IMG/VR virus record: IMGVR_UViG_3300042923_001771
Coordinates: 64,001-128,000 of that record
Strand: one strand, 5' to 3'
Source of the DNA: a virus
Taxonomy: Duplodnaviria; Heunggongvirae; Uroviricota; Caudoviricetes
DNA length: 64,000 nt
In this document: positions 1-17,719 of the stretch, piece by piece
How the letters are laid out: every line of letters begins with the position of its first letter
Position numbering within the stretch: the stretch's first letter is position 1
Made by a program: the position numbers and the translations under genes
The notes under the pieces: generated by a model
Databases searched by the model: none
Told to the model about the DNA's origin: nothing
Seen by the model: the letters and a program-made list of their open reading frames with translations, nothing else

Positions 1-37
1 GAGACGAAGAAAAAGCATCTTGAGGAGGAATACAAAA

Positions 38-526
38 ATGAGTTCTAGTTATGTTGTGATTGGTAAATTTTCAGAAATTAATTTTGATGAAGTGATAATG
101 AAAACTAAAGAGGGATTCAAAGTTGATAAAAAGAAGTTGAGAATTATTGCAGCAACAATTCTTTCTGCGGTTGTTATTGGTCTTCTTTCCGATGTTGCAT
201 TTGCAGCGGAAGTTCACTCAACATTTGCTGGTTTTGACCAAGGTGCAGTGGCAGCGATGGCAAATGTTCAACCTAAACCAACTCAATTGGAACATATTTT
301 TGAGTATATTAGATGGTTGATTCAACTCTTAAGATTAATTGTAAGTAGCGTTGCAGGGTTGATTTGTACCTTTGCTGGTTATAAATGGTCTACAACAATT
401 GACGGAAATGGAGCAGAAACCGCTAAGAAAATTTTGAAAAATGCATTTGTAGGTGGTTTAATAGTTTTCTCCGGTACTACAATTGCTGATTTCTTTGTTG
501 GTAAAATGGAGCAAATTCTAAACTAA
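38..526 (+). CDS. TrbC/VirB2-type pilin-like membrane protein
   Basis: GAGGAGG RBS precedes ATG at 38 (the track's start at 20 is upstream). Signal-like segment ending AFA-A, then two hydrophobic helices (LIQLLRLIVSSVAGLICTFAGY; AFVGGLIVFSG) separated by a short AETAKKILKNA loop, as in VirB2/TrbC pilins. Context supports the call. Confidence 0.6.
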   Translation: MSSSYVVIGKFSEINFDEVIMKTKEGFKVDKKKLRIIAATILSAVVIGLLSDVAFAAEVHSTFAGFDQGAVAAMANVQPKPTQLEHIFEYIRWLIQLLRLIVSSVAGLICTFAGYKWSTTIDGNGAETAKKILKNAFVGGLIVFSGTTIADFFVGKMEQILN

Positions 527-538
527 GGAGCGATACAA

Positions 539-688
539 ATGGATATTAATTATGAAAAAACTATTAGATATACTATTGCTATAACTTGTGGCTTAGTTGG
601 ATTCGCCATTACTTATGTCATTCTTGGATTGGCTATTCAACCAATCCAAGAATGGGTTGACAATAAAACTATAAAGGTGGTAAAATAA
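539..688 (+). CDS. 49-aa single-TM membrane peptide (not in ORF track)
   Basis: AAGGAG RBS at 525-530. Manual translation: MDINYEKTIRYTIAITCGLVGFAITYVILGLAIQPIQEWVDNKTIKVVK*. Confidence 0.55.
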   Translation: MDINYEKTIRYTIAITCGLVGFAITYVILGLAIQPIQEWVDNKTIKVVK

Positions 689-838
689 ATGTTTATAACT
701 TCTGCTGTTATTGCTACTGGTTTTCAGGTAATTATCGCTGTACGCGTTGGTATTTCTACATTTAAAATGGTGAATGTTACACTTAAAAAAAGGACTGAAA
801 AAAAAGACGTAAAGAAAGTAAAAACGATTAAGGAGTGA
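689..838 (+). CDS. 49-aa membrane peptide with basic tail (not in ORF track)
   Basis: AAGGTGG RBS at 674-680; ATG abuts the previous stop. Manual translation: MFITSAVIATGFQVIIAVRVGISTFKMVNVTLKKRTEKKDVKKVKTIKE*. Confidence 0.55.
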   Translation: MFITSAVIATGFQVIIAVRVGISTFKMVNVTLKKRTEKKDVKKVKTIKE

Positions 839-842
839 GGAC

Positions 843-1787
843 ATGCCAGATATGAAAATTCCATTTGTAGATGATGCCCTCAACTCTTGGGTGCAAGAAC
901 ATATTGTTGGACATTTAGCTGATCTTTTTCATCTCCTATCTGATAGCTTGCAGACCGGCGCAAATTCTTTTTTATCTGAAATGCTGGGGTTTGTACTTCA
1001 AACCCCTTTGATTGCAGCAAATCCAGTGATACTTCAAATATGGGCAATTGTCCGTGTAATTTCATTTTCAATTATAGGGTTGATGTTTGTTTGGGAAGCA
1101 TTTAAAAAAATAATTTCTTCAGATAATGTGATAAGACATGTTGAGTTTAAAGAGATGTTTATAAGAATGGTGTATGGTATTATTTTGGCAGTATTTAGTT
1201 TAGATATCATAGATATGATGATTGGTCTTGATAATGCATTAGTTAACACTGTCAAAAATGCTTTTCCCATCATTGTAAACAACAGCATAACTGTGAATGG
1301 TACTTTTAGTTTTATAATGACATTAGTTTTAATTGTTGTTCAAATTGTTTTGGGTGTCAAACTTATGATTCAATATTGGATGAGGATGGCTGAAATATGG
1401 TTAATGGCTGTTTTGGGGCCGTTGATGTATACTCTTTGGATAAATCCAAAATGGGGTGGTTATTTAAGTTCATGGGTAAGTAGATTAACCACTAATATAT
1501 TTACAACATTTGTTTGGGCACTTATAATTTCTTTATATTCTGGTATGGTCAGTATTGTAGCATCAACTGGGATGTTGATAGGGTTTCCAACTCTTGGTCC
1601 AATCGCAGGTATTTGTTTATCGATTGCATTGTTGCTAGTCATGATAGAGACGCCGGATTTCTTAAGGCAACATCTTGCTAGTGGTAAAAATCCAATAGCT
1701 ATGATTAAGAGTACAGTAAATAATGTTAGAAATAGTACACCACTACGTATTACTAAGAGAGCTGCAGGATGGATGTTGAAAAAATAA
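843..1787 (+). CDS. VirB6/TrbL-like polytopic membrane protein
   Basis: 314 aa with about 6 hydrophobic segments. The RMAEIWLMAVLGPLMYTLW...W segment resembles the VirB6-family core. Lies between the pilin-like and PrgI/VirB4 genes. Confidence 0.6.
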   Translation: MPDMKIPFVDDALNSWVQEHIVGHLADLFHLLSDSLQTGANSFLSEMLGFVLQTPLIAANPVILQIWAIVRVISFSIIGLMFVWEAFKKIISSDNVIRHVEFKEMFIRMVYGIILAVFSLDIIDMMIGLDNALVNTVKNAFPIIVNNSITVNGTFSFIMTLVLIVVQIVLGVKLMIQYWMRMAEIWLMAVLGPLMYTLWINPKWGGYLSSWVSRLTTNIFTTFVWALIISLYSGMVSIVASTGMLIGFPTLGPIAGICLSIALLLVMIETPDFLRQHLASGKNPIAMIKSTVNNVRNSTPLRITKRAAGWMLKK

Positions 1788-1799
1788 TAAACAATCTCC

Positions 1800-1836
1800 A
1801 AACCCTGACTAATTACATACAGGGTTTTTATTTTTT
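1800..1836 (+). terminator. Rho-independent terminator
   Basis: AAACCCTG...CAGGGTTT stem followed by TTATTTTTT. Confidence 0.7.
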
Positions 1837-1903
1837 CTGAATAATGTCTCTTTTGCCTATTGATGAATATAATTTTATTATAAGGACATAAGGAGGAATT
1901 AAT

Positions 1904-2284
1904 ATGAATGAAGACATTTGTCTCATACCAAGAAATTTAAGAAAAGCAGATACAATCATACAAACGCCAATAAAATTAACAATGAAACAACTTGTTTATA
2001 TTGGTATCGGTATTGGCGGAGCTTATTTTGCTTATGGCGCAGCGTTGCCTCTATTATATAAAGGTTTAATAATGGGTGGTAGTGCTTTAGCTGGAGTTGC
2101 TGGAGGTCTTTTTAAATATCAAGGTTCGTCAATTGATGAATTAGTTGGTGATAGTGTAGTATACGTTCAAAGAAAATCTTATTACAACAAATTAAATAAA
2201 AGGAGTGAGGTAGTTGTTAATATCAATTCTAGAAAAGAAGAAACAACCATCATTGGTGCAAGATCAATCTCTTTCACCGTTTAG
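1904..2284 (+). CDS. PrgI/VirB3-like membrane protein
   Basis: LTMKQLVYIGIG motif plus two TM helices; overlaps the start of the VirB4-like gene, the usual PrgI-VirB4 arrangement. Confidence 0.6.
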   Translation: MNEDICLIPRNLRKADTIIQTPIKLTMKQLVYIGIGIGGAYFAYGAALPLLYKGLIMGGSALAGVAGGLFKYQGSSIDELVGDSVVYVQRKSYYNKLNKRSEVVVNINSRKEETTIIGARSISFTV

Positions 2285-3926
2285 TCCTCCAAAAAATAGA
2301 GCGGTTTTTAAAGTATCTTCTGTCAATTTTGGGTTTAAATCAATGGATGATAAAATGATGCTTATTGAAAATTTTGGAAAATTTCTAAATTCATTAAACT
2401 TCCCAGTTCAAATACTTTGTGATAGTAAGACAGTTAATCCAGATGAGTGGTTGTTAAAAATACATGATGAAGAATATTATCAATTCTTAAAAGATACAAT
2501 CAATAGTAAGAATGTCACTGAAAAAACGTTTTATATAGCATTTACTGCTAGTGATGAAGTTGAACTTGGTATGCTTAAGAACAATATTAGAAATCATGTA
2601 AAACGTTGTAATTTAATTTGTGAAGAAATTGTTCCTCATGAACCACAAGCTATACCTCAATTGAGTGTAAATCATGTTAAGGTTGGAGAATGGTATCACT
2701 CTACTTTTATAGTTAAGAATTGGCCACATAGCGGTTCTGCTGGATGGTTAGAAGATTTGTACAATTTGGATAAAAACATTTCACTTTCTATGTTTATACA
2801 TCCAGTTCCAAAAGACGAAGCTGTAAAATACATTGGAAGACAATTGGCTAAACTCGGTTCAAGCGTTGTTATAAAAGAACAAGAGTCATGTCACGATGGA
2901 TTAGAAGATGAAGACATTGTAACAGCTATCAATATGCGAGATGAGCTTAATAAGAATGAAGGTAGATTTGTATTTGTAAGCTATTACATTACAGTAAAGG
3001 CAAAAAGTGTAACTGAACTCAAGAAAGATATTAAATATGTAAAAACCATCTTAAGCGGTATGATGATAGAAACAAAACAAGCGACACTTAGACAAGATGA
3101 TGCTTTTAGGTGTTCATTGCCACATGGTGTAGATTATTTAAAAAACAAGGCAATGTATACATTCACCACTACCCCATTGAAAAGATTTTTTCCATTTATA
3201 TCTGCAAACATTGTAGACAAAGGTGGGATTCTAATTGGTGAAAATCTACTAAATAGCTCATTAATTTTCTTGGATCATTTCAGTTATCAAACAGCAAGTA
3301 TGCTTGTAATTGGTAAAGCTGGTTCTGGTAAGTCATATGCTGTGAAAGCTCAGATAGAGAAACTCATTAGGCAAGGCATTGAGGTAACAGTTTTAGATAT
3401 TGAAGATGAGTTCTCTAGAATGCATCCACATCGCAATTTAATAATCAAACATTACGGTAAAACACCTAATGAAGAGTACAAAAAATTTCTTTTCAAATAT
3501 TGGGAAAAGGTTAATGCAGATTCAAGCATACCTAGATTTTTAGTTATCGATGAATTTTGGTGGCATATGAAAGACCCAGAAATTGCTCAACTTCTTCAAA
3601 TGATAGTAAAGCTTAGTAGAAAACGCTGGCTTGGGTTATGTGTAATTACTCAAGAGGTTTATGACATGCTCAGAAATGAATTTGCTGAAAGTATTGTTAA
3701 TAATTGTAGCATTAAGATTTTACTTAAAATTGAGCCCAATCAGAGAGAAAGCGTTCAGAAAACATTTGGTCTAACAAATAGTGAAGTTTCATTCTTGATT
3801 GGTGCGATAGAAGGTGAGGGGATACTCTTTGCTGGATCAAATCATGTACAGTTTAAAACAATTACTTCACCAGAGCAACATAAACGAATTACTACTAAAC
3901 CTCAAGAATTACATTTGGCAATCTGA
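2214..3926 (+). CDS. virB4: VirB4-like ATPase (compact)
   Basis: Walker A GKAGSGKS (3312-3335), Walker B FLVIDE, SRKRWLGLCVITQ motif, C-terminal GEGILF. N-terminal half has VirB4-like FVFVSYYITV...RQDDAFRCSLP. Confidence 0.75.
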   Translation: MLISILEKKKQPSLVQDQSLSPFSPPKNRAVFKVSSVNFGFKSMDDKMMLIENFGKFLNSLNFPVQILCDSKTVNPDEWLLKIHDEEYYQFLKDTINSKNVTEKTFYIAFTASDEVELGMLKNNIRNHVKRCNLICEEIVPHEPQAIPQLSVNHVKVGEWYHSTFIVKNWPHSGSAGWLEDLYNLDKNISLSMFIHPVPKDEAVKYIGRQLAKLGSSVVIKEQESCHDGLEDEDIVTAINMRDELNKNEGRFVFVSYYITVKAKSVTELKKDIKYVKTILSGMMIETKQATLRQDDAFRCSLPHGVDYLKNKAMYTFTTTPLKRFFPFISANIVDKGGILIGENLLNSSLIFLDHFSYQTASMLVIGKAGSGKSYAVKAQIEKLIRQGIEVTVLDIEDEFSRMHPHRNLIIKHYGKTPNEEYKKFLFKYWEKVNADSSIPRFLVIDEFWWHMKDPEIAQLLQMIVKLSRKRWLGLCVITQEVYDMLRNEFAESIVNNCSIKILLKIEPNQRESVQKTFGLTNSEVSFLIGAIEGEGILFAGSNHVQFKTITSPEQHKRITTKPQELHLAI

Positions 3927-4019
3927 GACAATAGGAGGTATTCTGTTTATTGCGGGATTGATGTTTCTATTTTCTAAAAAGCATAATTTAAGCGTAAGTA
4001 GAAAAAGGAGGAAATAAGA

Positions 4020-4244
4020 ATGGACTTGTTGATGAATTACGAAGAGGCATGTGAACTTATCAGAAATAATGGTTGGGATGATTTTTTAGCTTTGTTGAAT
4101 GAGAAATTTCCAAAATACAACCTCAAAGGTTGTAGCATGTCATGGTATGAAGAAAAAGATGGTTCTAAATTTATTTGCAAGGCTAAAGGTTCGCGTGGGG
4201 ATGTAATTGTTGGTTGGTATGGTGTGCATGATAAAGCTATGTAA
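4020..4244 (+). CDS. hypothetical protein, 74 aa
   Basis: AAGGAGG RBS; followed by a terminator. Confidence 0.6.
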   Translation: MDLLMNYEEACELIRNNGWDDFLALLNEKFPKYNLKGCSMSWYEEKDGSKFICKAKGSRGDVIVGWYGVHDKAM

Positions 4245-4255
4245 AGATATTTTTG

Positions 4256-4284
4256 AAAAAGAGAGTAAACACTCTCTTTTTTTT
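4256..4284 (+). terminator. Rho-independent terminator
   Basis: AAAAAGAGAGT-AAAC-ACTCTCTTTTTTTT. Confidence 0.75.
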
Positions 4285-4352
4285 ATTTGGTCTCTTTTTA
4301 ACATATGTGAATAAAATATATTAATAAGGTAATATTGAAAGGAGAATCAACA

Positions 4353-6848
4353 ATGTTCAAAAACAAAAAACAACAACCAGAAGAAAAAACTATACTTAAA
4401 TTGGAAAACGACATTGATTCAACAGCGGATGATAAAAGTAGCGATATGGATAGTTTTTGGGGTAGTATAAATGGTCTTCAAACAAAGAAAGAAAAACCAA
4501 CATTCTCATTTGAAATTTTGAGCAATAACGAAGGTGCAGCATTTTACTTTTCTATTCCAACAAAATTCAAAGGAATTATTGGAAAAAGACTAAATGCGGT
4601 ATATCCAGATATTGAAGTAATTGATATTAAAGAAGATAAGAACGATCCGGTTTCTTCTTTTAGAAATTTGAAAGAAGGTGAGCATACTTACAGTTGTGAA
4701 TTGCGATTAACTGAACATCAAGCATTTGGATTAAGAACTTCTGGAGTGCATAAGACTTTTCTTAATAATTTACTTAATACAATGAATCACTATAACGAGG
4801 AAGAAGTTTCGTTAATTCAAATAGTGATGAGACCAAGAACTGAACAATCTAATGCGAGAGCTGCAGCAAGAAGTACAAGTATCAAACGAAATTCATTCAA
4901 ACATCGAAATCCAGCATTTCGTTCATTGATGTTTGTGTTAGAAATTATTGTAAATTCCTTAATGTTTGTAGTAGATACTCTATTAACTAAAGGTCAATTA
5001 AAGAAAGCGTTTGATGAAACGGCAGTAACTGTAACAACTGGAAGTAGTAAGATTAAAGAAAAGGAAAACAAATTTAAAAAACCTTGTTTTGATGTATCGA
5101 TAAGAATAGCAACTAAATCTAAAGACTTAATAGTGGCAGAGCAAACCGCAATAAGCATATCAAATGTTTTCAAAGAATTGGATGATGAAAACAAACTTAG
5201 ACCAATTAAGATTAATATTAATTCAATAGCTGAAAGAGAAATGAAAAAGGGTAAAGCTTTTTCAAGTAATGAAATTTCTCAATTTGCTTATCTGCCTGGT
5301 AAAAATGTTTCGTCAAGTAATGTTGATAAGGGCGGAGTTAAGATGCCTTATGACAAGAATGTTCCTAATAAAGGCATTGTATTTGGATATTCTCCACAAC
5401 AAGGTAACAGATTAGTGGCATTTCCTATGAATGTGATCTCTAAAGAAAAGTATGATGAGCTCTATCAAGAATATGAAAAAATGATTGACAATATTTGCAA
5501 ACCAAGATTAGTGCTTGGAATGATGGGTACTGGTAAATCTGAATGGATTGTAAACTATACTCTTTCTCTCATTGAGGCGGGAGTTGCAGTTATTCTGGTT
5601 GACCCTAAAAATGATACTCAAAAGAGATTAATTGAATCTATGCCAGAAAATAAGCTTGAAAAAATTGACTACTTGGACCTTGGAGATTTATTGTTCCCGC
5701 CAGGTATGAACTTATTACGTCGTAGAAACCCTGGTGACCCAACCGAAATATCACTCATTGTTCAGTCATTAATTAGTTTCTTTAAAAAGGAATTTGGAAG
5801 GTCTTGGGGTTTTGCAATGCAACAATTAATCATGATGACTGGTAATGCTATTTTACTTGATGAAGTTGCTACATTGTATGAATTCCAATTAATGCTTACC
5901 AACAAAGAATATCGTGGCAATATGATTGAAAAAATTGATGAAAGGTTAAAGGACCCAACGGTTGGCGGTAGAGCAATGTTGAAAGAATTACATGCCTTTT
6001 GGAAACAATTTCATAGTTGGCCTGAAAAAGATCAAATGGCTAGAATTAGCTCAACAATGAATAAAGTCGGAGTGTTTATGAGTAACCGTATTGTTAGAGC
6101 GATAGTATCGCAGAAAGGAAGTTACGATTTTAGAAAATCTGGAGATGCTGGTAGAGTCACAATAGTTAACATTCCAGATGGAGAGTTGGGAGACGAAAAT
6201 ACAAGATTATTAGCGTCGTTTATCAATAAGGCTGTTTGGTTAGATTTTCGTTCTAGAGCTAATATTCCAATTGAAAAACGTTATCCAACTGTATGGCTTA
6301 TTGAAGAAGCTCATATGGTAATGGATGAAGAATTTATACCCATACTTACACAATCTCGAGGATATCGTCTTGGTCTGACCGTTTTAACACAAGGTCTCAA
6401 TAACTTTGAAAGTAGAGGAAACGGAGAACTAAAAGATATTCTTTTAACTAACTGTAAAAATAAAATTGTATTCCGTGTTGGACCAGCTGATGCTAGAATA
6501 CTTGCAGAAGAATTTGCACCACTTACAGCATATGATTTGATGAACTGCCCAGATTATCATTTCTATTCAAAGATACTCCTTGAAGGTGGTAAGGTATCAG
6601 AGGCATTCTTTGCGCATGCTCCAGACATGGCACCAGAGCTAAGAAGTTACGACAAATATAAAGAAAATCATCGTTCTGGTAAGATGACAATTGATCAAAT
6701 TGAAGACCAACTTGATACTCGTCATAACTTAACTGATGCAACTACTATTTCAGTAATTAATCTTGGAGAGGGTGAATCACAAACTCCAGATGAAAGACCA
6801 TCTAAGAAAAAACCTGGAATGAAAAAAGCATTAGAGTTTTTAGAATAA
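4353..6848 (+). CDS. VirD4/TraD/HerA-like coupling-type ATPase
   Basis: AAAGGAG RBS before ATG 4353. Walker A GMMGTGKS, ILVDPKND, WLIEEAH (Walker B), SRGYRLGLTVLTQ, NCKNKIVFRVGPADA. Confidence 0.75.
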   Translation: MFKNKKQQPEEKTILKLENDIDSTADDKSSDMDSFWGSINGLQTKKEKPTFSFEILSNNEGAAFYFSIPTKFKGIIGKRLNAVYPDIEVIDIKEDKNDPVSSFRNLKEGEHTYSCELRLTEHQAFGLRTSGVHKTFLNNLLNTMNHYNEEEVSLIQIVMRPRTEQSNARAAARSTSIKRNSFKHRNPAFRSLMFVLEIIVNSLMFVVDTLLTKGQLKKAFDETAVTVTTGSSKIKEKENKFKKPCFDVSIRIATKSKDLIVAEQTAISISNVFKELDDENKLRPIKININSIAEREMKKGKAFSSNEISQFAYLPGKNVSSSNVDKGGVKMPYDKNVPNKGIVFGYSPQQGNRLVAFPMNVISKEKYDELYQEYEKMIDNICKPRLVLGMMGTGKSEWIVNYTLSLIEAGVAVILVDPKNDTQKRLIESMPENKLEKIDYLDLGDLLFPPGMNLLRRRNPGDPTEISLIVQSLISFFKKEFGRSWGFAMQQLIMMTGNAILLDEVATLYEFQLMLTNKEYRGNMIEKIDERLKDPTVGGRAMLKELHAFWKQFHSWPEKDQMARISSTMNKVGVFMSNRIVRAIVSQKGSYDFRKSGDAGRVTIVNIPDGELGDENTRLLASFINKAVWLDFRSRANIPIEKRYPTVWLIEEAHMVMDEEFIPILTQSRGYRLGLTVLTQGLNNFESRGNGELKDILLTNCKNKIVFRVGPADARILAEEFAPLTAYDLMNCPDYHFYSKILLEGGKVSEAFFAHAPDMAPELRSYDKYKENHRSGKMTIDQIEDQLDTRHNLTDATTISVINLGEGESQTPDERPSKKKPGMKKALEFLE

Positions 6849-6861
6849 AATTGGTAAAGAT

Positions 6862-6883
6862 GGAGCCGAAAGGCTCCTTTTTT
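6862..6883 (+). terminator. Rho-independent terminator
   Basis: GGAGCC-GAAA-GGCTCC-TTTTTT. Confidence 0.8.
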
Positions 6884-6976
6884 ATTGTTAAAATTTAACA
6901 AAGGTGCAGATGATTAATTAGGGAGTACTTGTGATATAATATATATATAAGGTAATTAACCCAAGGAGGAGATAAT

Positions 6977-7750
6977 ATGACAACAATTGTAGATATGACA
7001 TGTTTAAAATCATCGCACTCTCCTATTTTGAGTAACGAAGAAACAATTGAATTATTTAATAAACTTAAATTTAAAAACGACGAATCAGCAAGAGATAAAT
7101 TAGTTTATTCCAATACTGGATTAGTATTAAGTGCTCTTAAGAAATTTAAAAATAGAGGAGAAAATATAAACGATTTATTTCAAATCGGTTGTATTGGCTT
7201 AATTAAAGCAGTTGATAGATTTGACCTTGCTAGAGAATTAAAATTTTCAACATATGCAGTATGGACGATTGACGGTGAAATTAAAAGATATCTACGAGAT
7301 GATTCTGCAATTAGAGTAAATCGTAGTTCAAAAAACATGTTGTACAAAATTAATAGGGCTAAAGATCAATTTGTTATAGAGAATGGTAAAGAACCAACTA
7401 ACACAGAAATTGCAGATAAATTAGGCGTAAAAGAAAAAGAAATTACAAACACCTTACTTTCTTTACAACCAATAGCATCACTATCTGAACCAGTAGATAG
7501 CGATAATGGAAAAGTATCATTGATAGACAAAATTGACGATAAAAAGATAAGTGAAGAATTAACTTTGAATAGTATTGCTTTAAGTGAAGCAATTAAGAAA
7601 TTAAATGAAAAAGAACAAAAAGTAATTAGTATGAGATATTTTTTAGATAAAACTCAAGCCGAAATAGCTAGCGAATTCGGAGTTTCTCAAGTTCATATTA
7701 GTAGATTAGAGAAAAATGCTATTAAAGAAATGAAGAAGTATATGTGCTAA
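6977..7750 (+). CDS. SigF/SigG-like alternative sigma factor
   Basis: Region 2 DLFQIGCIGLIKAVDRFD...KFSTYAV; region 3 EPTNTEIADKLGV; region 4 KTQAEIASEFGVSQVHISRLEK. Extended -10 TGTGATATAAT at 6930-6940. Confidence 0.9.
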   Translation: MTTIVDMTCLKSSHSPILSNEETIELFNKLKFKNDESARDKLVYSNTGLVLSALKKFKNRGENINDLFQIGCIGLIKAVDRFDLARELKFSTYAVWTIDGEIKRYLRDDSAIRVNRSSKNMLYKINRAKDQFVIENGKEPTNTEIADKLGVKEKEITNTLLSLQPIASLSEPVDSDNGKVSLIDKIDDKKISEELTLNSIALSEAIKKLNEKEQKVISMRYFLDKTQAEIASEFGVSQVHISRLEKNAIKEMKKYMC

Positions 7751-7939
7751 TGAACCCTTAGGGTTCTTTTTTTTGCAATTAGAAAAGCATTCATTCTAAG
7801 AAAGGATTTTTAATGATTAGGTTATATATTAACTGATGAAATAATGTTCTGAGAAATCACCAGAATGAACCAGATAACATAAAAAGATGATGGATTAATT
7901 AAAATCCATCATCTTTTTATATACTATATACCTGAGAAC

Positions 7940-8284
7940 TTAATCATCATCACCATCACTGTCATCATATTCTAATTCATCTAAAGAATTATTTTGAGCT
8001 CTTACGGTGTTGATGATAGAAAATACCTTTTCAGCAATTTTTTCAATTGCTGGAGTGTTCATGAGTTCTTTATACGTATTTTCTATTTCTTCTAGTACAA
8101 AATTAAGTTCAACATAAGTGAAGCTTTGTTTTTCATCAGGTCTAGTGATTATTTCTCCATCAATTGGAGCCCAATTAGTAATAAGCTTTTTAAATCTATT
8201 TCTTGAGCGTCCATCCAATAAAGTAGTATAGTTATTGTTATTCATTCTAAATAAAATTGCTACCAAACGATCATCTTGTGCCAT
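7940..8284 (-). CDS. hypothetical protein, 114 aa, acidic tail
   Basis: CAGGAGG RBS on the minus strand; ends at a bidirectional hairpin near 7882-7918. Confidence 0.7.
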   Translation of the reverse strand: MAQDDRLVAILFRMNNNNYTTLLDGRSRNRFKKLITNWAPIDGEIITRPDEKQSFTYVELNFVLEEIENTYKELMNTPAIEKIAEKVFSIINTVRAQNNSLDELEYDDSDGDDD

Positions 8285-8601
8285 TTTAATTCCTCCTGTT
8301 AATTTTTGATATTTTCTAGATTATCCATCTTTATTATTATTATATCTAACTGAAAAGCTTCTATACTTGAAAATTTCTCATTTTTTACTCTTTATTGGAT
8401 TTTTTTTAAAAAACCTGTTATATTTTCATTACTCTACTCTATATTAATGATAGGTTAAGGTTAAACCTGTTCTCTACGAAAAGTGTTTTTACCCAATGAA
8501 TTTGGAGATATTCAGATTTTTCTGATTAGAGTTTAAATACTCTAAGCAAATATCAGAAGATATGCTACTGCTAATTTTATTAGAAAGCAGGAGGCGATTA
8601 A

Positions 8602-9081
8602 ATGTATTTAGTAAAGCCAAACGGTAACTATAATATCGTAATTAGTGATATTGGAGTTACGATTTCATCAAACAATAATATCCTTATTGAAAAGAGTAAG
8701 ATTGATAACTCTGGAGATGCTAGGAAATTGATTGTGTCAAATCTTCTTTTGATAGAGGATGCAAACGAAAAGACAATTAAAACTGAAGATAAGGTGGAAG
8801 CAAAAGCCGATGATGCTAAGATTTTTGTTGCTAGAGAGGAAGAAACAAAAGTTAATTCTGAAGTTTTTGTAAGAGAACCTAAAAAAGAAGTTGAAATTGT
8901 TTCACCGGTAGTTGAAGAAATTAAAAACACTGAAGTTGTTGAAATTTCAACTGAGGAAGTTAAAGTAGAAGTTGCTGAAGTAGTAGAAAATACAAAAATT
9001 GCAACTAAAGTTGTAGCTGAAAAAGCTGCACCAACTACAGAAGTAACTGAAAAATCCATTACCAAAAAAGGTAAAAAATAA
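8602..9081 (+). CDS. probable virion protein, E/V/K-rich
   Basis: GGAGG RBS; low-complexity acidic C-terminal half; first gene of a putative late unit. Confidence 0.6.
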   Translation: MYLVKPNGNYNIVISDIGVTISSNNNILIEKSKIDNSGDARKLIVSNLLLIEDANEKTIKTEDKVEAKADDAKIFVAREEETKVNSEVFVREPKKEVEIVSPVVEEIKNTEVVEISTEEVKVEVAEVVENTKIATKVVAEKAAPTTEVTEKSITKKGKK

Positions 9082-9098
9082 TAGGGAGGTCATTATAA

Positions 9099-10385
9099 AT
9101 GGCAAAGGTAAACTGGTTAGATAAGTTCGCAGCGGATCAACACGCTAAGGAACAAATGAAAAAACAAGCATCCACTAACAAGGTTGCTAATCAAATCATC
9201 GTAAGCCCTGAAGATGTACCAGGTGCTCAAGAAGGTTCAGAAGTTCAATTCAACGGTGAAAGCTTTAAAGTTGTAGATGCTAACTTCTCCGATGAAGTAG
9301 GTCCTGGTGTTGTTTTAGAAAAAGCAGCTGGTTATGAAGGTTTAGAAGGCGACCCAATGGCAGTTTCTATGGGAACTCAACCATCTAGCGTTTCCACTCC
9401 ATCTTCTACTGGTCAAACTTACCACCGTACGAAACTTGACATTCAACAAACTTACGATAATGATCAAGATGCTCAATATGGTCAATCTTCAGCTCAAGCT
9501 ACTGAGCAAATGATTGCTGGCGAAAATGCTACAGATCGTACTTCCGTCCCTGGTCACTACACAAATTCTCCAGGATTAAACACGGCTCCAGCTGCTCCAA
9601 TTGGTGCTCCTGCAGGTGGACCAGTAGGCGCTCCTACACCAGTTGGTACTCCAGCTCCTTCAGCTACTCCAGTAGTGCCAGCAGCTACTCCAGCTCCAGT
9701 AGGCACGGATGCTCCAGCTGCTCCAGCTGCTCCGGCAGCAGTTGACGTTCCAGCTGAAGAAGTTGCTGTTGAAGATGCTCCAGTTGATGGTGTTGAAGAA
9801 GAAAAGGAAAATAAAATCCTTTCCGCTTTGAAAAATTCTATGCCTAAGAAAGCAAAAGTAACTCGTGCTTCCATTAACAGTCACATCATCAACCTTGCTA
9901 ATGATGTATCTAGTACTATCACAGCTGAAGTTGAAGAAGTTCTTGAAGATGCTGAAGAAGCTGTTAAAGCATTCGTTCCAGCTCGCCTTGCTTCCGCAGC
10001 TCTTGCTAAATTAGAAGAAGCTCTTGAAGAAGAGGGAATTGAAGCATTATTCGACAAAATGGTTTCTAAAGAAGCTATCAGCAAAACTGCTGGTGAAGAA
10101 GTTTCCGATGAAGAAATCGAAGAAGTAGTTAAAAAAGTAGCTGAAGTTGTAGTAGCTGAGCTTGAAGAAGTTCTTAAAGATGCTGACGAAGCAATGGATG
10201 GCGAAAGAGAAACTCTAGCTGAAGGCGAAGAAGATGGCGGTTTCGAAATGGAAGCTAAACTTAAAGCTATGGTTGAACGTAAATTACATGCAAAAGGTAT
10301 TTATACTCGTTTTGCACGTACTGCTAGCAAACCTGCTAAGAAGTCAATTGCTCAAAAAATCCGCGATGCTCGCCGTTCTAACTAA
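9099..10385 (+). CDS. acidic Pro/Ala-rich protein, candidate scaffold or internal head protein
   Basis: GGGAGG RBS, strongly biased codons (GCT, GAA, GTT), PA-rich linker, E/A-rich helical C-terminus, basic tip. Function is inferred only. Confidence 0.45.
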   Translation: MAKVNWLDKFAADQHAKEQMKKQASTNKVANQIIVSPEDVPGAQEGSEVQFNGESFKVVDANFSDEVGPGVVLEKAAGYEGLEGDPMAVSMGTQPSSVSTPSSTGQTYHRTKLDIQQTYDNDQDAQYGQSSAQATEQMIAGENATDRTSVPGHYTNSPGLNTAPAAPIGAPAGGPVGAPTPVGTPAPSATPVVPAATPAPVGTDAPAAPAAPAAVDVPAEEVAVEDAPVDGVEEEKENKILSALKNSMPKKAKVTRASINSHIINLANDVSSTITAEVEEVLEDAEEAVKAFVPARLASAALAKLEEALEEEGIEALFDKMVSKEAISKTAGEEVSDEEIEEVVKKVAEVVVAELEEVLKDADEAMDGERETLAEGEEDGGFEMEAKLKAMVERKLHAKGIYTRFARTASKPAKKSIAQKIRDARRSN

Positions 10386-10412
10386 TAAATAATTTCAACT
10401 TCATATCGTATT

Positions 10413-10454
10413 AAATAAGCAGATGTCAGTTTATTGACATCTGCTTATTTTTTT
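10413..10454 (+). terminator. Rho-independent terminator
   Basis: AAATAAGCAGATGTCA...TGACATCTGCTTATTT followed by a T-run. Confidence 0.8.
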
Positions 10455-10479
10455 ATAAAATGTCAAAGTAGGTGTTAAT

Positions 10480-11619
10480 ATGGCAAACATTTATCATAAA
10501 GGTGATGACTTATTTCTTTATGTTCAATTTAAAGATGACAAGAGAAAACCAATTGAAGTAGTAAATCCAACGGTTTGTATTACATACGAACAAGATGGAG
10601 ATATAAAAGATTTACTGCCTATACAAAACTTGGTACAAATGAGTGAAAATGAATATTTTTTCAACTATGTTATCCCTTATGATGCACCGTATGGTATCTA
10701 TCAAATTGAATATCAAGGTCAATATAACGAAGAATTAGGCGGAAGAATATTAGAAGAGTTTCACATCATACCAACTTCTGAAGTGTATGATAATGCAATT
10801 AAAGTTTACGGTTTTGTGCATCAAATGATGGCTAATTATCCATTGATTGGAGTAACTGTAGATGTTTCTTTGACTGTTGACTCCAGAGTTATATCTAAAT
10901 CTTTTACAGGAGACGATGGTTCTTGGGAAGTTCATCTATATCCTGACGAATATACATTTAAATTTAGTAAATTTGGATTTAAAACGCAAATTGTAAGTGT
11001 GCAACTTGGCGCTAGTTATACTGAAATACAATTTGACAATGTGACGCTCGAATCTGAGGCAGATATTAAAAAAGGAAATGGTATATTTAGGGTGAGTGAT
11101 AAATATACCACAAGGGAAGGAGTAGCATTGAGTGGTTTAAATGTTAAAGCATTTAGTACTTTTAACCCAACTGTTGCTTGTGGAGAAGATATTACTAATA
11201 ATTCTGGAGAATGGGAGTTATTTGTAGACCCTGGTATGTATTTGCTAAAAGTACAAGGTGAATCTCTATTAGAAGATTTTGACCAAACTTTTAGATTAAA
11301 GGTAGGTCCGAGCGGAGAATTGTCGTTTGAAAATATAACAAAAAACGTTGCCACTCCAAATATAGATTTTTCATTACAAGGTAATGAAAATGGCAATGGT
11401 ACAGAAGAAATTTCAGATATAGTAACTGATGCAAATGGAAATCCAATTATAGATGTGCAAGTATCTGTTTATTATAAAAACAACTTAAGTAAAATAATAG
11501 CGCAAGACTATACTGATGTTGGTGGTAAATGGATAGTCTTTTTAGATCCTGGCAGTTATGTAATTGAGTTTTATCATCCAGAATTCCATGAGTTTAGAGA
11601 AGATAGACAAGTAAATTAA
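10480..11619 (+). CDS. structural protein with three carboxypeptidase-regulatory/transthyretin-like beta-sandwich repeats
   Basis: Three repeats of P/A-x-x-G/D-V-x-V...T-x-x-x-G-x-W-x-x-x-x-x-P-G/D-x-Y. Confidence 0.55.
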   Translation: MANIYHKGDDLFLYVQFKDDKRKPIEVVNPTVCITYEQDGDIKDLLPIQNLVQMSENEYFFNYVIPYDAPYGIYQIEYQGQYNEELGGRILEEFHIIPTSEVYDNAIKVYGFVHQMMANYPLIGVTVDVSLTVDSRVISKSFTGDDGSWEVHLYPDEYTFKFSKFGFKTQIVSVQLGASYTEIQFDNVTLESEADIKKGNGIFRVSDKYTTREGVALSGLNVKAFSTFNPTVACGEDITNNSGEWELFVDPGMYLLKVQGESLLEDFDQTFRLKVGPSGELSFENITKNVATPNIDFSLQGNENGNGTEEISDIVTDANGNPIIDVQVSVYYKNNLSKIIAQDYTDVGGKWIVFLDPGSYVIEFYHPEFHEFREDRQVN

Positions 11620-11919
11620 AAAGTTTTCTTACCTCCAATTGAAGATTTGATTAGTAACTCTAGTACCAATAGGTTAATATTTAAGAAAAGATACCAGATT
11701 ATTTCTGGTATCTTTTTTACATATATGGGAGCGTAAATAGAAATCAAAAAATTTATTGTAGAAAAATGACGATTTAAGGTAATAAACAACACAAACAAAC
11801 GTATTTTTAACATGAAAGTAACTTTTAAATTTTAGTATATCTATAATCTCTTTAGCTAGCAAAGAGCATTTTATAATATACTAATATTAAAATCTACCTA
11901 AGAGGTAAGGTGAGCCCAC

Positions 11920-12714
11920 ATGGCAGACAAAGAAAAATACTGTGGATATATCAAGGTAACAGATGATCAATTGGCTAATTATTTTGAAGGTAGAAATTTA
12001 GAAGAACTAAAAACAAATCAATATTTAATTAGCGAAGACGAAAAGATTGTCAGATTTGATGGCACTAAAATCGTCGAATTGAGATTACCAGACATAAAGG
12101 GCTTTAAAGCAAAAAATATCCATCAAATGATGGCACTAGACTTATTACACAATAAAAATGTACCAGCGAAAGTTCTTACAGGAATCGCAGGTTCAGGTAA
12201 GACTCGTATGGCGATTCAATATGGTTTATACCTACTAAGCAATGGTGACATTGAGAAGATTTTTATTACTCGTAATCCTGCGACAGTAGGGGAAGATATT
12301 GGCTATTTAAAAGGAACTAAAGAAGAGAAATTATCATTCATTACGAAACCAATAATTGACAATTTACCAGATGGTGAGTTTGGACTACACAAACTTATTC
12401 AGTATGATCAAATAGAATTTGAATCACCTTCATATATGCAGGGTCGCGACTTAAGAAACTCTTTTGTAATAGTTGATGAAGCACAAATGATGGATAAAGA
12501 TTTAGTTAAAATGTTAGGTAGTAGAATTGGCGAAGGCTCTCAAATTTGTTTTGTTGGGGACTATGAACAAGCTTTTTCTAGAAAATATAAGGGTGACAAC
12601 AACGGTCTAGTTCATATGATTAACACACTAAATGGACAAAATTTATTTGGAGTAGTTGAACTACAAGATAGCGTCAGAGGGCCCGTGGCTGAAATGTTTG
12701 GAAAAATGTTATAA
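11920..12714 (+). CDS. phoH: PhoH-family ATPase (YlaK/PhoH2-like C-terminal domain, no PIN)
   Basis: NIHQMMALDLL, GIAGSGKT, RNPATVGEDIGYLKG, YMQGRDLRNSFVIVDEAQ, VGDYEQ. Confidence 0.9.
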   Translation: MADKEKYCGYIKVTDDQLANYFEGRNLEELKTNQYLISEDEKIVRFDGTKIVELRLPDIKGFKAKNIHQMMALDLLHNKNVPAKVLTGIAGSGKTRMAIQYGLYLLSNGDIEKIFITRNPATVGEDIGYLKGTKEEKLSFITKPIIDNLPDGEFGLHKLIQYDQIEFESPSYMQGRDLRNSFVIVDEAQMMDKDLVKMLGSRIGEGSQICFVGDYEQAFSRKYKGDNNGLVHMINTLNGQNLFGVVELQDSVRGPVAEMFGKML

Positions 12715-12789
12715 ATTAGAGCAGTTATTTTTTAAAACTCCTTTCATACTCTATTTTTAAGTAGAGAGTATAGAAGGGAGTTTTTTATT

Positions 12790-13224
12790 TTGCCAATAGT
12801 TAGAAATACATCAGATCATAATATCATTATAAACGAAAAAGTTGTCCTTCCAACAAAATCAATTGCTATATCTCAAGATCAAATTGAAGATGTACAAAAC
12901 CTAATTGATAAAGGTATGTTAAGGTTAGAACCTCAAACTGTAAATAGAGTTGAAAATTTTCCCAAATTTGATGAAAGTAAAAGACAAGAATTTGATGAAA
13001 TAAAAGCACGTCTAATGCCAGCACTTTTCTCACTACATCTCAATCAAGAATTATCTGATGAAGAGTTACGTGATTTGAAGTGGTTTTATAAAAATATTGG
13101 TCCTACGTCACAATTGGATAATAATTTAAAGTCACTTTTAGACGATGTAGTTCATACAGAAGAGTTTTTAGAGGTGCTACTAAATCATTTGTATTCAGAG
13201 TTGATTAAAAATTCGATAAAATAA
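12790..13224 (+). CDS. hypothetical protein
   Basis: AAGGGAG RBS, TTG start. Confidence 0.6.
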   Translation: MPIVRNTSDHNIIINEKVVLPTKSIAISQDQIEDVQNLIDKGMLRLEPQTVNRVENFPKFDESKRQEFDEIKARLMPALFSLHLNQELSDEELRDLKWFYKNIGPTSQLDNNLKSLLDDVVHTEEFLEVLLNHLYSELIKNSIK

Positions 13225-13293
13225 AAACGAATCTTAAAATTATATAGTTAACGGTGCGGTCTTGCACTACTAATTATATAGGGGTGGTCTATA

Positions 13294-13497
13294 ATGGCTA
13301 ATTACACATTTAGTGGAAAAATACCCGGGATTGTTGAACAAATTTTTGTTACTAAGTATCAAGAAGGCAAAGACACTGTATTTGTATCTTTGGCAGAAGG
13401 TCAAGTTAGGAACTTAAACGCTACTCAAGTTGAAGCTTTACCAATTTTACCTGCAGGTTACACGATTACTGCTACTTCGACACCATCAACTCCATAA
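13294..13497 (+). CDS. small probable virion protein, 67 aa
   Basis: GGGGTGG RBS; followed by a terminator. Confidence 0.55.
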   Translation: MANYTFSGKIPGIVEQIFVTKYQEGKDTVFVSLAEGQVRNLNATQVEALPILPAGYTITATSTPSTP

Positions 13498-13605
13498 AAA
13501 AGAAACGGGTGGGCATTAGCTCACCTGTTTTGCGTAAATAAACAAGTGAAAACTTGTATTTATATATAGACGGTACAAATCGTCAATTTTCGGAGGTGAA
13601 TTTGA

Positions 13606-14145
13606 ATGGGAACAATTCTAACCCCAATTAACCAAAAAGCTCCATCATCTATGTCCGTTAGAGAAAGAGAATGGATACAACAACTAAGAGTAATGTTGAA
13701 GGATTTACCAGATCAAGTAAATAGAACACTTGGCACATTAGTAGAACAAGATCGTGGAGAGAGATGGACAGATATGCAATTGCTTATTTATCTAAATCAA
13801 GCGGTTGCAGATTTAAACGTAGAGCCACCACACACTTCATTCACTCTTGATGTAATACCTGAAATATTTAAGGCTTGCATTATTAATGGTGCTACAATTT
13901 TTGCTTTAATTGCAGAAGGAATTCTTCAAGTGGGTGAAAGCTTCTCTTACTCAGACAACGGTATTAGTCTTTCTATCAACTTGGCTCAAGGTTACCAATC
14001 GCTAGCACAAATGTTGTTGACTGGTTATACTCAATTGAAAAAGGATATTAAACGTGCAATGCGTCCACATGCTGCCGGTATCAAACAAAGCCCTGCTCCA
14101 GTAAAGGTTCGTAGCTATGCACCAAGACAATGGACATATCGTTAA
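13606..14145 (+). CDS. head-tail adaptor-like protein (HK97 gp6/SPP1 gp15-like)
   Basis: QLRVMLKD...RWTDMQLLIYLNQA helical signature, SFSYSDNGISLSI beta hairpin; GGAGG RBS. Confidence 0.6.
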   Translation: MGTILTPINQKAPSSMSVREREWIQQLRVMLKDLPDQVNRTLGTLVEQDRGERWTDMQLLIYLNQAVADLNVEPPHTSFTLDVIPEIFKACIINGATIFALIAEGILQVGESFSYSDNGISLSINLAQGYQSLAQMLLTGYTQLKKDIKRAMRPHAAGIKQSPAPVKVRSYAPRQWTYR

Positions 14146-14234
14146 TTTTTTTATGTCTCCCGTAATTGGGAGATTTTTTGTTTAAAAAAGCAGCTAAAAA
14201 AGATATAATATTTCTACACTGGATGGTGATAGAA

Positions 14235-14648
14235 ATGAAACGTGAAGAAATAATGGATAAATTAGAAGCTTATGTTTTAATAAAGAGCATATTAGAAGAT
14301 AAACCAACATGGAAAGTTAGAAGTGGTGAATCTCTTCATGAAGGTATCAAGAAAAACAATTTTATTAGGGTTATAGAACAGAAAAAAGAGCGATGGTATG
14401 GTGTTAAAAAAAAATGGAATACATATCTTGAAATTTTATATGCTGATAATTTTGTAACAATAAGCTTGTTTCTTAGACCAGAACAAAAAAAGGCATATAA
14501 AATGCTTAGAGAATATTTTTTAACAAACAGAGATGCAGTTAAGGAAGCTTCTCAAGATAAATTTACTGCGCGTTTTGAAGACCACGATAGATTTGATGAG
14601 TTTTTCGAAAACTACATACTAGGAGAAAAAGTGTGTAACTTAGTTTAA
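14235..14648 (+). CDS. hypothetical protein
   Basis: GGTGA RBS before ATG 14235; followed by a terminator at about 14648-14678. Confidence 0.55.
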   Translation: MKREEIMDKLEAYVLIKSILEDKPTWKVRSGESLHEGIKKNNFIRVIEQKKERWYGVKKKWNTYLEILYADNFVTISLFLRPEQKKAYKMLREYFLTNRDAVKEASQDKFTARFEDHDRFDEFFENYILGEKVCNLV

Positions 14649-14678
14649 AAAGTCCCTTATTTTTTAGGGACTTTTTTA

Positions 14679-14707
14679 TTTACAAAATCAATTATATGTG
14701 ATATAAT
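14679..14707 (+). promoter_or_regulatory. sigmaA-type promoter with extended -10
   Basis: TTTACA (14679-84), 17-bp spacer, TG-A-TATAAT (14702-07). Confidence 0.75.
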
Positions 14708-14742
14708 AAATATATAAGAAAAAACATAAAGGAGAGAAAACA

Positions 14743-15216
14743 ATGATTGGAATAAGCAAAATAAAAAACAAATTAATGATAAGAAAAGAAATGTATTCAA
14801 TTGAAGAAGTACTATTGAAGATTGTTCCGATTTATACGAAAAAGAAAGAATCTAGGGTTGACTTTGATGGAGACTTAATAGCGATGAATTCTCATCGTTA
14901 TCACAATTTTCATGCTCACGGTGTTGTTTGTGTTACGTGTGGTCTAGAAGGTAAGTATTTTGTTAAAGAAAAATTTAAAGACGATAATTCTTTTCATTTT
15001 AATCTATATGCAATTAACGCTGATGGAAATGAAGTCCTTATGACAAAAGATCATATTGTGGCTAAGTCAAAAGGCGGATTAGATAGACTGGAAAACTACC
15101 AACCAATGTGTACAATTTGTAATAAAGAAAAAGACACAATGTCGCAAGAAGAGTTCCAACAACATATTATCAATAAAGAGATTATTATGCTGGGGGAGGT
15201 TGCTACAATTGCCTAA
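14743..15216 (+). CDS. free-standing HNH endonuclease
   Basis: CVTC...MTKDHIVAKSKGG...NYQPMCTICN. Confidence 0.85.
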   Translation: MIGISKIKNKLMIRKEMYSIEEVLLKIVPIYTKKKESRVDFDGDLIAMNSHRYHNFHAHGVVCVTCGLEGKYFVKEKFKDDNSFHFNLYAINADGNEVLMTKDHIVAKSKGGLDRLENYQPMCTICNKEKDTMSQEEFQQHIINKEIIMLGEVATIA

Positions 15217-15601
15217 ATATGCTGGACATCCAATAATGAATGCAGTTTATGATTCACTCAAAAAGATAAATAACAAAAAAGATGTAATTCTTGTTAAAGA
15301 TTTTGACTCAAAAGCTTGTCAATTGGGATGGCAACGTAAAAATGAAACATTTTCTTGGATGCATGATCTAAGTAAAGAAATATCCACTTTCAGGAATTTT
15401 TCTAAAACCGGAATGTCAATACATAGCTCATTCAAAGATGCTCTTTATCGTGTAAAAAGAGCTATTAGAGCTTTAGAATCTGCTATACAAGATGAATTTG
15501 TCAATCCAAAGCAAATAGCTGTGTTAGGTGAAGTCAAAGACGAACTTGAAGCGTACTTATTAATATTAGAATTTGGAAAAATAAATGAGGAGGCAATGTA
15601 A
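15209..15601 (+). CDS. hypothetical helical protein, paralogue A
   Basis: GGGGAGG RBS before TTG 15209; C-terminal LGEVKDELEAYL is shared with the next ORF. Confidence 0.55.
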   Translation: MPKYAGHPIMNAVYDSLKKINNKKDVILVKDFDSKACQLGWQRKNETFSWMHDLSKEISTFRNFSKTGMSIHSSFKDALYRVKRAIRALESAIQDEFVNPKQIAVLGEVKDELEAYLLILEFGKINEEAM

Positions 15602-15984
15602 TGCAAGAGATTAATATTATCACTAAAACGATACTCTCCTCTCTTCAAGAAAAAGCAAAAGAATTGAAATTCGTTGTAAATAGTATTTTTTTAAATGATG
15701 ATGGAAGTAAAATTGACAAATCATATGCTTGTGACGCGCGGACTGCTATTCATAATTGGTGCGATAGGATTACTAATAAGAATCTTTGGAACTCTTATTT
15801 TTGTACATATAGAGCTGGTAATTTTGAAAAAGATTTAGTGTCAGCTTGTAGAAAAATAGTAAGAGTTCTTAATCACATTACTTCTAACAAAAATTGCAAT
15901 CAGCAATATAAAGAAAAACTAAGTGAGATTAAAGACGAAGTTGAATCTCACTTAGTCATGATAGCAATGGAAAAGGTTGTTTAA
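15601..15984 (+). CDS. hypothetical helical protein, paralogue B
   Basis: GAGGAGG RBS; C-terminal LSEIKDEVESHL. Confidence 0.55.
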   Translation: MQEINIITKTILSSLQEKAKELKFVVNSIFLNDDGSKIDKSYACDARTAIHNWCDRITNKNLWNSYFCTYRAGNFEKDLVSACRKIVRVLNHITSNKNCNQQYKEKLSEIKDEVESHLVMIAMEKVV

Positions 15985-17663: not shown

Positions 17664-17719
17664 AGCCTTGTATTTTCTATTTAAAATTCAGTAGACAAAA
17701 ATATGGAGGGTACGAAAAA

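Follow-up and report, generated by a model that had tools for sequence, protein, structure and literature searches.

The closest described relatives of the system reported here come from Bacillus phages. Pathria et al. (2012) described in phage 0305phi8-36 a "DNA translocation operon" composed of a MobC-like relaxase, a VirD4-like ATPase, a VirB6 homologue and an MreB-like gene, noted that SPO1 has a partial version of it, and proposed particle-free cell-to-cell propagation in biofilms (PMC3357382). The 2025 paper on Bacillus phage G lists gp155-156 as TraC/TraD-like (PMC12484599), the authors of a Bacillus siphovirus study read a trio of pilin, Replic_Relax and FtsK-like genes as plasmid replication/segregation remnants (PMC9658697), and a 2026 study reported that SPO1 forms virospores, naming the ParM gene of the operon as a possible contributor (PMC12991052). 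The module is not covered in the jumbo-phage review of Iyer et al. (2021). We analysed a run of genes resembling a conjugative type IV secretion system (T4SS) at the start of a 64,000-nucleotide stretch of tailed-phage DNA, hereafter the window, which covers bases 64001-128000 of the 175 kb IMG/VR record IMGVR_UViG_3300042923_001771 from a soil metagenome.

The run is most likely a phage-G-like version of the Bacillus-phage DNA translocation operon, vertically inherited, intact, dispensable and derived from a monoderm-type conjugative T4SS. The operon class has been known since 2012, and the run itself is already present and partly annotated in phage G. Added here are parts upstream of the window, a VirB4-type fold for DUF8128, the near-confinement of the second ATPase family to phages that infect spore formers, linkage to TubZ in several lineages, and a deletion scar.

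Results

A conjugation-type module in a relative of phage G

By protein similarity, the source genome belongs to an uncultivated soil phage related to Bacillus phage G: phage G proteins gp146-gp156 are 41-68% identical to the module proteins and are encoded in identical order, while megablast of window positions 1-8000 against phage and plasmid collections gave no match. IMG/VR labels the record "provirus" and estimates its completeness at ~35%. No RNA data set is listed as containing this stretch. A preliminary description made from the letters of the window had named VirB2-, VirB6-, PrgI/VirB3-, VirB4- and VirD4-like genes; all five were located on the plus strand (Table 1). It had also pointed to a shared strand, composition and ribosome-binding site style, and this holds, with a GGAGG-type ribosome-binding site for each gene and GC of 0.31-0.36 throughout without a compositional break.

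Gene order is alike in six independent loci, namely phage G and the metagenomic contigs L006, L007/L008, L009, L010 and L011. It starts with TubZ, followed by Replic_Relax on the opposite strand, PhageMetallopep (closer relatives only), the pilin-like gene, small transmembrane genes and TrbL. M23 (L006), PrgI-like, VirB4 and DUF8128 ATPase genes come next. After them stand three or four conserved genes, of which the last encodes CarboxypepD_reg and Ig-like domains, and PhoH (closer relatives). TubZ adjoins the module in L006, L007, L009 and L011. Among the 18 contigs carrying both ATPases, the identity of one to its window counterpart tracks that of the other (r = 0.97), and therefore the two appear to have descended vertically together. 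The synteny check proposed earlier thus came out positive, with module order and flanks shared by phage G and independent metagenomic contigs. On sequence and synteny, the module is real, intact, T4SS-derived and part of the phage.

The two ATPases

The short VirB4-family protein matched NCBIfam conju_CD1110 (1.6e-53) and VirB4_CagE (1.9e-18), both under the curated cut-offs, and its Walker A (GKAGSGKS) and Walker B (VIDEF) motifs are intact. The gene starts with TTG at 2214 behind a strong ribosome-binding site. At least 33 relatives or clusters were detected, with identities of 41-100%; all are metagenomic except phage G gp155, and their contigs reach 558 kb. Used alone as query, VirB4 matched no pattern in an IMG/VR scan. 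Beyond the G-like relatives identity falls to ~30%, with the ~600-residue VirB4 of Patescibacteria.

The second motor ATPase carries coupling-protein signatures in its C-terminal half, where TraG-D_C was matched in 37 of 39 family members. SXT_TraD was matched at 4.9e-11, under the model cut-off, and remote homologues carry TrwB_AAD_bind and T4SS-DNA_transf domains. The family profile, compared with solved structures, found DotL (2.3e-8) and TrwB (2.3e-4) ahead of VirB4 (0.16). The preliminary description had raised the possibility that the ATPases belong to HerA/FtsK packaging or defence families; by sequence, the profile searches did not place them there. The AlphaFold model (mean predicted local distance difference test, pLDDT, 82.4) has a helical insert in the coupling-protein-like P-loop domain. 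The fold of the motor domain does not decide its class, because VirB4 (Z 26.9), DndH-C (26.1), TrwB (24.9), DotL (23.9) and HerA (23.4) align about equally (Z 23-27).

The N-terminal 335 residues correspond to Pfam DUF8128 in precomputed annotations. Folded alone (pLDDT 82.2) and compared with 48,161 chains, this domain matched the TrwK/VirB4 N-domain at Z 16.6 (root-mean-square deviation 3.5 Å over 253 residues), with the next match at Z 7.9, and the top 14 Foldseek matches were all TrwK. The modelled domain contains an inserted hydrophobic helical hairpin (about residues 187-227). Because the N-domain is VirB4-type by fold and the motor is coupling-protein-like by sequence, the second ATPase is, according to the model, a VirB4/coupling-protein hybrid and not a canonical VirD4. 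DUF8128 is thereby given a new predicted structural identity as a VirB4-type N-domain. The earlier label "VirD4-like" is in line with the sequence signatures of the C-terminal half and fails for the N-terminal third. The 0305phi8-36 homologue was described as lacking the VirD4 N-terminal transmembrane domain (2012; PMC3357382), and the hybrid architecture agrees with that remark and extends it. Prediction of a complex between the pilin-like protein and the DUF8128 N-domain yielded no answer (score 0.00).

Pilin-like and membrane proteins

The ATG of the pilin-like gene at position 38 is preceded by the ribosome-binding site GAGGAGG. Its phage G orthologue gp150 matches PF18895 at 27.4 bits, above the cut-off, and this family was matched by 8 of the 10 pilin-like orthologues or analogues. 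An alignment of 19 sequences contains a long leader with a signal-anchor ending FAA|E and two conserved hydrophobic helices, with an invariant AKKILKN loop between them. Together with the hydropathy scan it predicts the cleavable leader, two hydrophobic helices and short basic loop of T4SS pilins, a layout that we take to be that of VirB2/TrbC precursors.

The VirB6-like protein has 5-6 hydrophobic segments and is 64% identical to gp153; among isolated phages it was found in phage G only. The PrgI/VirB3-like protein aligned with Patescibacteria PrgI (hhalign probability 87.8%, E 3.3e-6), and the PrgI profile was matched by only 2 of 7 orthologues. These proteins share an invariant IPRNL motif, and both the gene position and the overlap of its 3' end with the VirB4 start fit VirB3/PrgI. 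Two further small membrane proteins lie between the pilin-like and VirB6-like genes. The position equivalent to the first holds small genes of 37-59 codons in L006, L007 and L009; the second gave no sequence match to gp152 and is its equivalent by position alone.

Parts upstream of the window

The preliminary description had noted no relaxase or hydrolase inside the window. This is correct for the window, but a nickase, an M23 hydrolase and a metallopeptidase do exist directly upstream (C1:61806-64023, where C1 denotes whole-record coordinates and L003 the interval C1:52001-66000), within 0-2.2 kb before the window start.

The nickase gene lies 1.4 kb before the window start, and its product matched SPO1 gp27.3 by BLASTP (3.1e-17). 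PF13814 is the MOBC relaxase class of CONJscan, and streptococcal mobilisable elements pair it with VirD4-type coupling proteins (PMC5357655). Residues H104, H132, E155, P171-D172, E189, D191, E195 and K203 are invariant across the nickases of the G-like phages, SPO1 and JL, a pattern consistent with an active PD-(D/E)XK-type nuclease that follows a winged helix-turn-helix (wHTH) domain. The search of the record proposed earlier for relaxase and TubZ genes found both, the TubZ gene lying 14 kb upstream of the module. No plasmid replication initiator was seen in the 175 kb.

The M23 peptidase gene also occurs within the L006 module. A second M23 domain (41 bits), in a 230-residue frame at C1:30558-30875, is unrelated to the module-linked copy. 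The metallopeptidase is the orthologue of phage G gp149 (65% identity); an Atlas structure search groups this zincin with PF18894 and gave SprT-like proteins as a weak lead only (TM 0.52).

The interval between TubZ and the module holds other genes. Two of them stand before the nickase gene: one encodes a 745-residue protein containing a von Willebrand A (VWA) domain (C1:55336-57573; L003:3336-5573), the other, 2.4 kb beyond it, a 369-residue AAA ATPase (C1:59945-61054; L003:7945-9054). The two may form a MoxR/VWA-type pair. A Thg1-like tRNA-His guanylyltransferase (2.9e-33) is encoded at C1:54189-54980 (L003:2189-2980).

Loss of the module in relatives

The 379-residue downstream gene served as an independent IMG/VR marker in a survey for loss of the module. 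In L018 (IMGVR_UViG_3300009680_000010), a 162-residue open reading frame (ORF) at L018:7258-7746 ends in 56 residues that share 52% identity with the C-terminal end of the second ATPase. This 56-codon relic is fused to unrelated sequence, the upstream orthologues are the genes that precede TubZ in the source genome, and the flanks match genes ~27 kb apart there. This arrangement suggests that a deletion took out the entire TubZ-to-ATPase block and left a scar. In four more distant relatives (L019-L022) the module is absent and the downstream structural genes are kept.

Relatives with tail genes and no module, which the preliminary description had named as evidence against its reading, therefore exist in part: L019-L022 carry none and L018 only the 56-residue relic. 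The scar and the module-free relatives indicate that the module is accessory and can be lost; as judged from these genomes, it is ancestral to the G-like clade all the same.

The second ATPase family in other phages

The second ATPase belongs to PHROG 5156 (5.2e-158), which includes SPO1 gp27.4 and 0305phi8-36 ORF201. We detected the family in 146 phage records. Hosts that form endospores account for 145 of them: 133 are phages of Bacillus, 5 of Geobacillus (with a further 2 "Deep-sea thermophilic phage" records), 2 of Lysinibacillus, and one each of Alicyclobacillus, Brevibacillus and Clostridium. The sole exception is a Microcystis phage. None of the 146 records is a Staphylococcus, Listeria, Streptococcus or Lactococcus phage. 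Nickase homologues were found in 34 records, all Bacillus phages. The ATPase gene adjoins an actin-like ParM/Alp gene in SPO1, JL and D6E, and in siphoviruses it lies among recombination/replication genes. Immediately 5' of it stands a weakly pilin-like gene in PBC5 and a 140-residue gene with no family match in vB_BpsM-61.

Features of the locus and downstream neighbours

Table 1. Features of the module and its flanks (window coordinates unless marked C1 or L003)
Feature	Coordinates	Strand	Evidence or description
MOBC-type Replic_Relax nickase	C1:61806-62615	divergent	PF13814 8.7e-25, 88.4 bits (cut-off 25.3)
Standalone secreted M23 peptidase	C1:62940-63476		Peptidase_M23 1.7e-30, N-terminal hydrophobic anchor
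PF18894 "PhageMetallopep" zincin gene, 3' end	1..23 (whole gene C1:63574-64023 = L003:11574-12023)	+	Pfam 2.4e-10
VirB2/TrbC-like pilin precursor	38..526	+	PF18895 T4SS_pilin 22.1 bits (below cut-off 26.6); TrbC 18.6 bits
49-residue single-transmembrane protein	539..688	+	hydrophobic segment residues 11-37; gp151 orthologue, BLASTP 1.8e-11
49-residue protein, N-terminal transmembrane segment and basic tail	689..838	+	gp152 position
VirB6/TrbL-like polytopic membrane protein	843..1787	+	PF19597 TrbL_4 5.2e-11, 42.9 bits (cut-off 27)
PrgI/VirB3-like small membrane protein	1904..2284	+	PF12666 25.2 bits (below cut-off 27)
Short VirB4-family ATPase, 570 residues	2214..3926	+	P-loop_TraG 4.5e-16; gp155 orthologue
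74-residue soluble ORF	4020..4244	+	no family match
Terminator-like hairpin between the 74-residue ORF and the second ATPase	4255..4282	+	
Second motor ATPase, 831 residues	4353..6848	+	gp156 orthologue; homologue of SPO1 gp27.4 and 0305phi8-36 ORF201
GC-rich terminator-like hairpin closing the module	6862..6877	+	
SigF/SigG-like sigma factor	6977..7750	+	NCBIfam SigG 2.8e-83, under curated cut-off
Conserved genes, 159, 428 and 379 residues	8602..11619	+	acidic or Pro/Ala-rich, or CarboxypepD_reg and Ig-like domains

The 74-residue ORF is a lineage-specific insert, because gp155 and gp156 abut in phage G. The junction after the second ATPase holds the SigF/G-like gene and a 114-residue ORF here and an HNH endonuclease in phage G. 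Since the junction carries different inserts in different lineages, the SigF/G-like gene is not regarded as a module part, and its adjacency, which the preliminary description had used as a clue to function, loses its weight.

The genes at 8602-11619 follow the second ATPase in L006, L007, L009, L010 and L011 too. They were considered as T4SS adhesins or VirB8 analogues and rejected, having no signal or membrane segments. Those at 9099-11619 were likewise rejected as T4SS parts, their orthologues heading the tail block in relatives without the module. In L019 and L022 the orthologues of the 428- and 379-residue genes directly precede the tail sheath block. The tail operon placed 1.8 kb downstream by the preliminary description has to be redrawn: no profile names 8602-11619 as tail and the sheath is at 21802-23577, while 9099-11619 does open the structural block by synteny. 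PhoH, RNA ligase and ~8 other ORFs (11920-17700) lie between the 379-residue gene (10480-11619) and the tail block (17720 onward). This interval looks like an insertion into the structural operon, because the orthologues are contiguous in L019 and L022.

Discussion

The conjugation-type set is near-complete, intact and co-inherited, and it is linked to the gene of a DNA-moving filament. We suggest, with a probability of roughly 0.45, that its function is to move nicked phage DNA across a membrane. The MOBC-type nickase, with its wHTH and PD-(D/E)XK-type domains, would cut phage DNA at a specific site. The second ATPase, through its VirB4-type N-domain and coupling-protein-like motor, would pass the DNA to a membrane channel made of the VirB6-, VirB3- and VirB2-like and small transmembrane proteins and powered by the short VirB4. 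In the source phage the secreted M23 hydrolase would open the wall, and phage DNA would leave the infected cytoplasm across the membrane.

The destination is a more tentative matter. The secreted wall hydrolase and the pilin precursor speak for a neighbouring cell within a chain or biofilm, a destination that is possible though rather unlikely taken alone. The forespore, with formation of virospores, is somewhat less likely still; in its favour are the near-confinement of the ATPase family to phages that infect spore formers, the filament link and the virospores of SPO1 (PMC12991052). Of the two export routes suggested earlier, that by cell contact matches the proposal of Pathria et al. (2012), and the sigma-factor clue for that into the forespore is not conserved. 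As a tentative generalisation, which we hold as less probable than DNA export itself, the G-like megaphages, together with many other phages of spore-forming Bacillota that have a reduced form, would use a conjugation-type channel guided by a tubulin or actin filament for virion-free DNA transfer to the next cell or forespore.

Several observations weigh against DNA export. We know of no tailed phage shown to transfer its genome by a T4SS of its own. Only AT-rich, unremarkable inverted repeats were found in the search for an oriT near the nickase gene, M23 is absent from the phage G module, and VirB8/TcpC/PrgL-like families (PF12642, PF04335) gave no match in the 175 kb, which is ~35% of the genome and from which divergent forms may escape. 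Many Bacillus phages have the second ATPase without the short VirB4, with or without the nickase or a weakly pilin-like gene; since they keep only this ATPase, the common core may work without a complete channel. Neither gp155 nor gp156 of phage G is a virion protein, and their function in phages is described by the authors as entirely unknown (PMC12484599). Deletion of the 0305phi8-36 operon gave no laboratory growth defect (PMC3357382) and one G-like lineage has lost the block, so any role is probably conditional.

Two of the alternatives concern the nature of the genome. An assembly chimera, or a fragment of an integrative and conjugative element (ICE) or plasmid joined to phage DNA, has in its favour that the 6848-8602 junction, where an ICE boundary had been considered earlier, holds lineage-specific inserts, and otherwise nothing. 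Synteny of the flanks with phage G and with at least 5 contigs from other samples effectively refutes it; half of the sampled words of this stretch recur in a second soil study, and there is no GC break. A phage-plasmid or integrated element, with the module as its ordinary conjugation system, is suggested by the IMG/VR label, the plasmid-type TubZ gene and the PhageAI classification of phage G as temperate. It is nevertheless very improbable, and the preliminary description's proposal of a phage-plasmid gained no direct support. Lysogeny of phage G has not been observed over 50 years, CheckV makes no prophage call for it, and its genome is a linear molecule that carries terminal repeats. In the source record, profiles for tyrosine integrases and resolvases matched nothing within the 175 kb and composition is even, as had been noted before for the integrase, att site and compositional break.

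The other alternatives accept the module as a phage system and assign it different work. Intracellular plasmid-like DNA handling, in which nicking starts replication and the ATPase and membrane proteins tether or segregate DNA with TubZ/ParM, could operate in a carrier or pseudolysogenic state. The module does lie beside TubZ or ParM/Alp, the siphovirus ATPase does lie among recombination/replication genes, PHROG 9381 is annotated "replication initiation by nicking", and the siphovirus authors see plasmid remnants (PMC9658697). That PHROG label is an annotation and not a test, however, no plasmid replication initiator or integrase was seen, and tethering needs no VirB4, VirB6-like channel, VirB3-like protein, pilin precursor with cleavable leader or secreted hydrolase; we regard this explanation as unlikely, if credible. 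DNA import, as in archaeal Ced or Helicobacter ComB, would bring in the trailing part of a ~500 kb genome or foreign DNA. The combination of small pilin, VirB6 and VirB4 resembles Ced, the nearest cellular VirB4 relatives are those of the Patescibacteria T4SS-like loci, and the short VirB4 weakly matches CedB (2.1e-7) and CedD (1e-6). These matches are far under the model cut-offs, while a relaxase-type nickase and a coupling-type ATPase typify export, and the phage G genes, at 85-93 kb of 497 kb, are far from the ends and would enter late, making import improbable. T4SSs also secrete proteins, and the pilin-like and membrane parts are the best conserved among the small genes, as effector delivery, superinfection exclusion or adhesion through a pilus-like fibre might require. 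This we consider equally improbable, given the tight linkage of nickase and DNA-moving filament genes to the module and the absence of a conserved candidate effector in the block.

The usual assumption is that tailed phages spread as particles alone. DNA export, if true, would give them a second, particle-free route of transmission or persistence. A machine conserved intact in the largest cultivated phage lineage, and in reduced form in ~146 sequenced phages of spore formers, hints at particle-free transfer or at spore loading, and either outcome, if true, would change the view of phage persistence and host range in soil. The question is testable in the cultivable phages G (Lysinibacillus), SPO1 (B. 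subtilis) and 0305phi8-36 (B. thuringiensis).

Comparison with known systems

The chromosomal T4SS-like loci of Patescibacteria (CPR), which hold the nearest cellular VirB4 relatives, share PrgI, VirB4 and PF18895 T4SS_pilin with the module. They differ in a separate 222-224-residue TraC-like (PF26593) gene directly before the ~600-residue VirB4 (two loci), and neither a nickase nor a DUF8128 ATPase was seen in the locus examined. On the Patescibacteria contig L015, the interval 6743-12032 encodes a 222-residue TraC-like protein, a 602-residue VirB4, PrgI and a T4SS_pilin-domain protein, beside the replication origin genes (rnpA, yidC, dnaA and dnaN).

The monoderm T4SSs (mating-pair formation types FA/FATA: ICEBs1, pCF10, pCW3, Tn916 family) resemble the module in having VirB4 and VirB6-like proteins, a relaxase and a wall hydrolase, and probably also in a VirB3/PrgI-like protein and an ATPase of coupling type. 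The features found here are the VirB4, a predicted member of the relaxase family, the VirB6-like protein and the secreted peptidoglycan hydrolase. Unlike them, the source ATPase has a VirB4-like N-domain in place of the N-terminal transmembrane domain, a pilin-like gene is present, and the carrier is a tailed megaphage. Monoderm conjugative T4SSs use SLT/CHAP hydrolases, whereas that of the source phage is an M23 enzyme.

Phage G (Donellivirus gee) gp146-gp156 is the closest system, with identities of 41% for the nickase, 65% for the metallopeptidase, 47% for the pilin-like protein, 42% for gp151, 64% for the VirB6-like protein, 48% for the PrgI-like protein, 66% for VirB4 and 68% for the second ATPase. 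GenBank and the 2025 paper annotate only gp155 (VirB/TraC-like) and gp156 (MsbA/TraD-like). The source phage adds M23 before the metallopeptidase, the 74-residue ORF and terminator between the ATPases, and the SigF/G-like gene; at those places phage G has gp147/148 and the HNH endonuclease.

0305phi8-36 orf200-207 and SPO1 gp27.3-27.9 share with the module a MobC-like nickase, a large ATPase and a cytomotive filament gene, and 0305phi8-36 also a VirB6 homologue. The large ATPase of the source phage matched SPO1 gp27.4 at 1.4e-28 and the SPO1 protein matched ORF201 at 2e-20, with gp27.4 finding both ORF201 and phage G gp156. SPO1 gp29.1 is weakly pilin-like (Pfam 0.022); our pilin profile had no similarity to it, so the SPO1 pilin link rests on the weak Pfam match. 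No actin-like (MreB/ParM) gene was found in the source module, and the TubZ of the G-like version is a functional analogue, not a homologue, of the actin-like protein of 0305phi8-36 and SPO1. Relative to these two operons, three components are additional in the G-like phages: a short VirB4 that is bona fide, a VirB3-like protein and a pilin precursor that clearly resembles VirB2.

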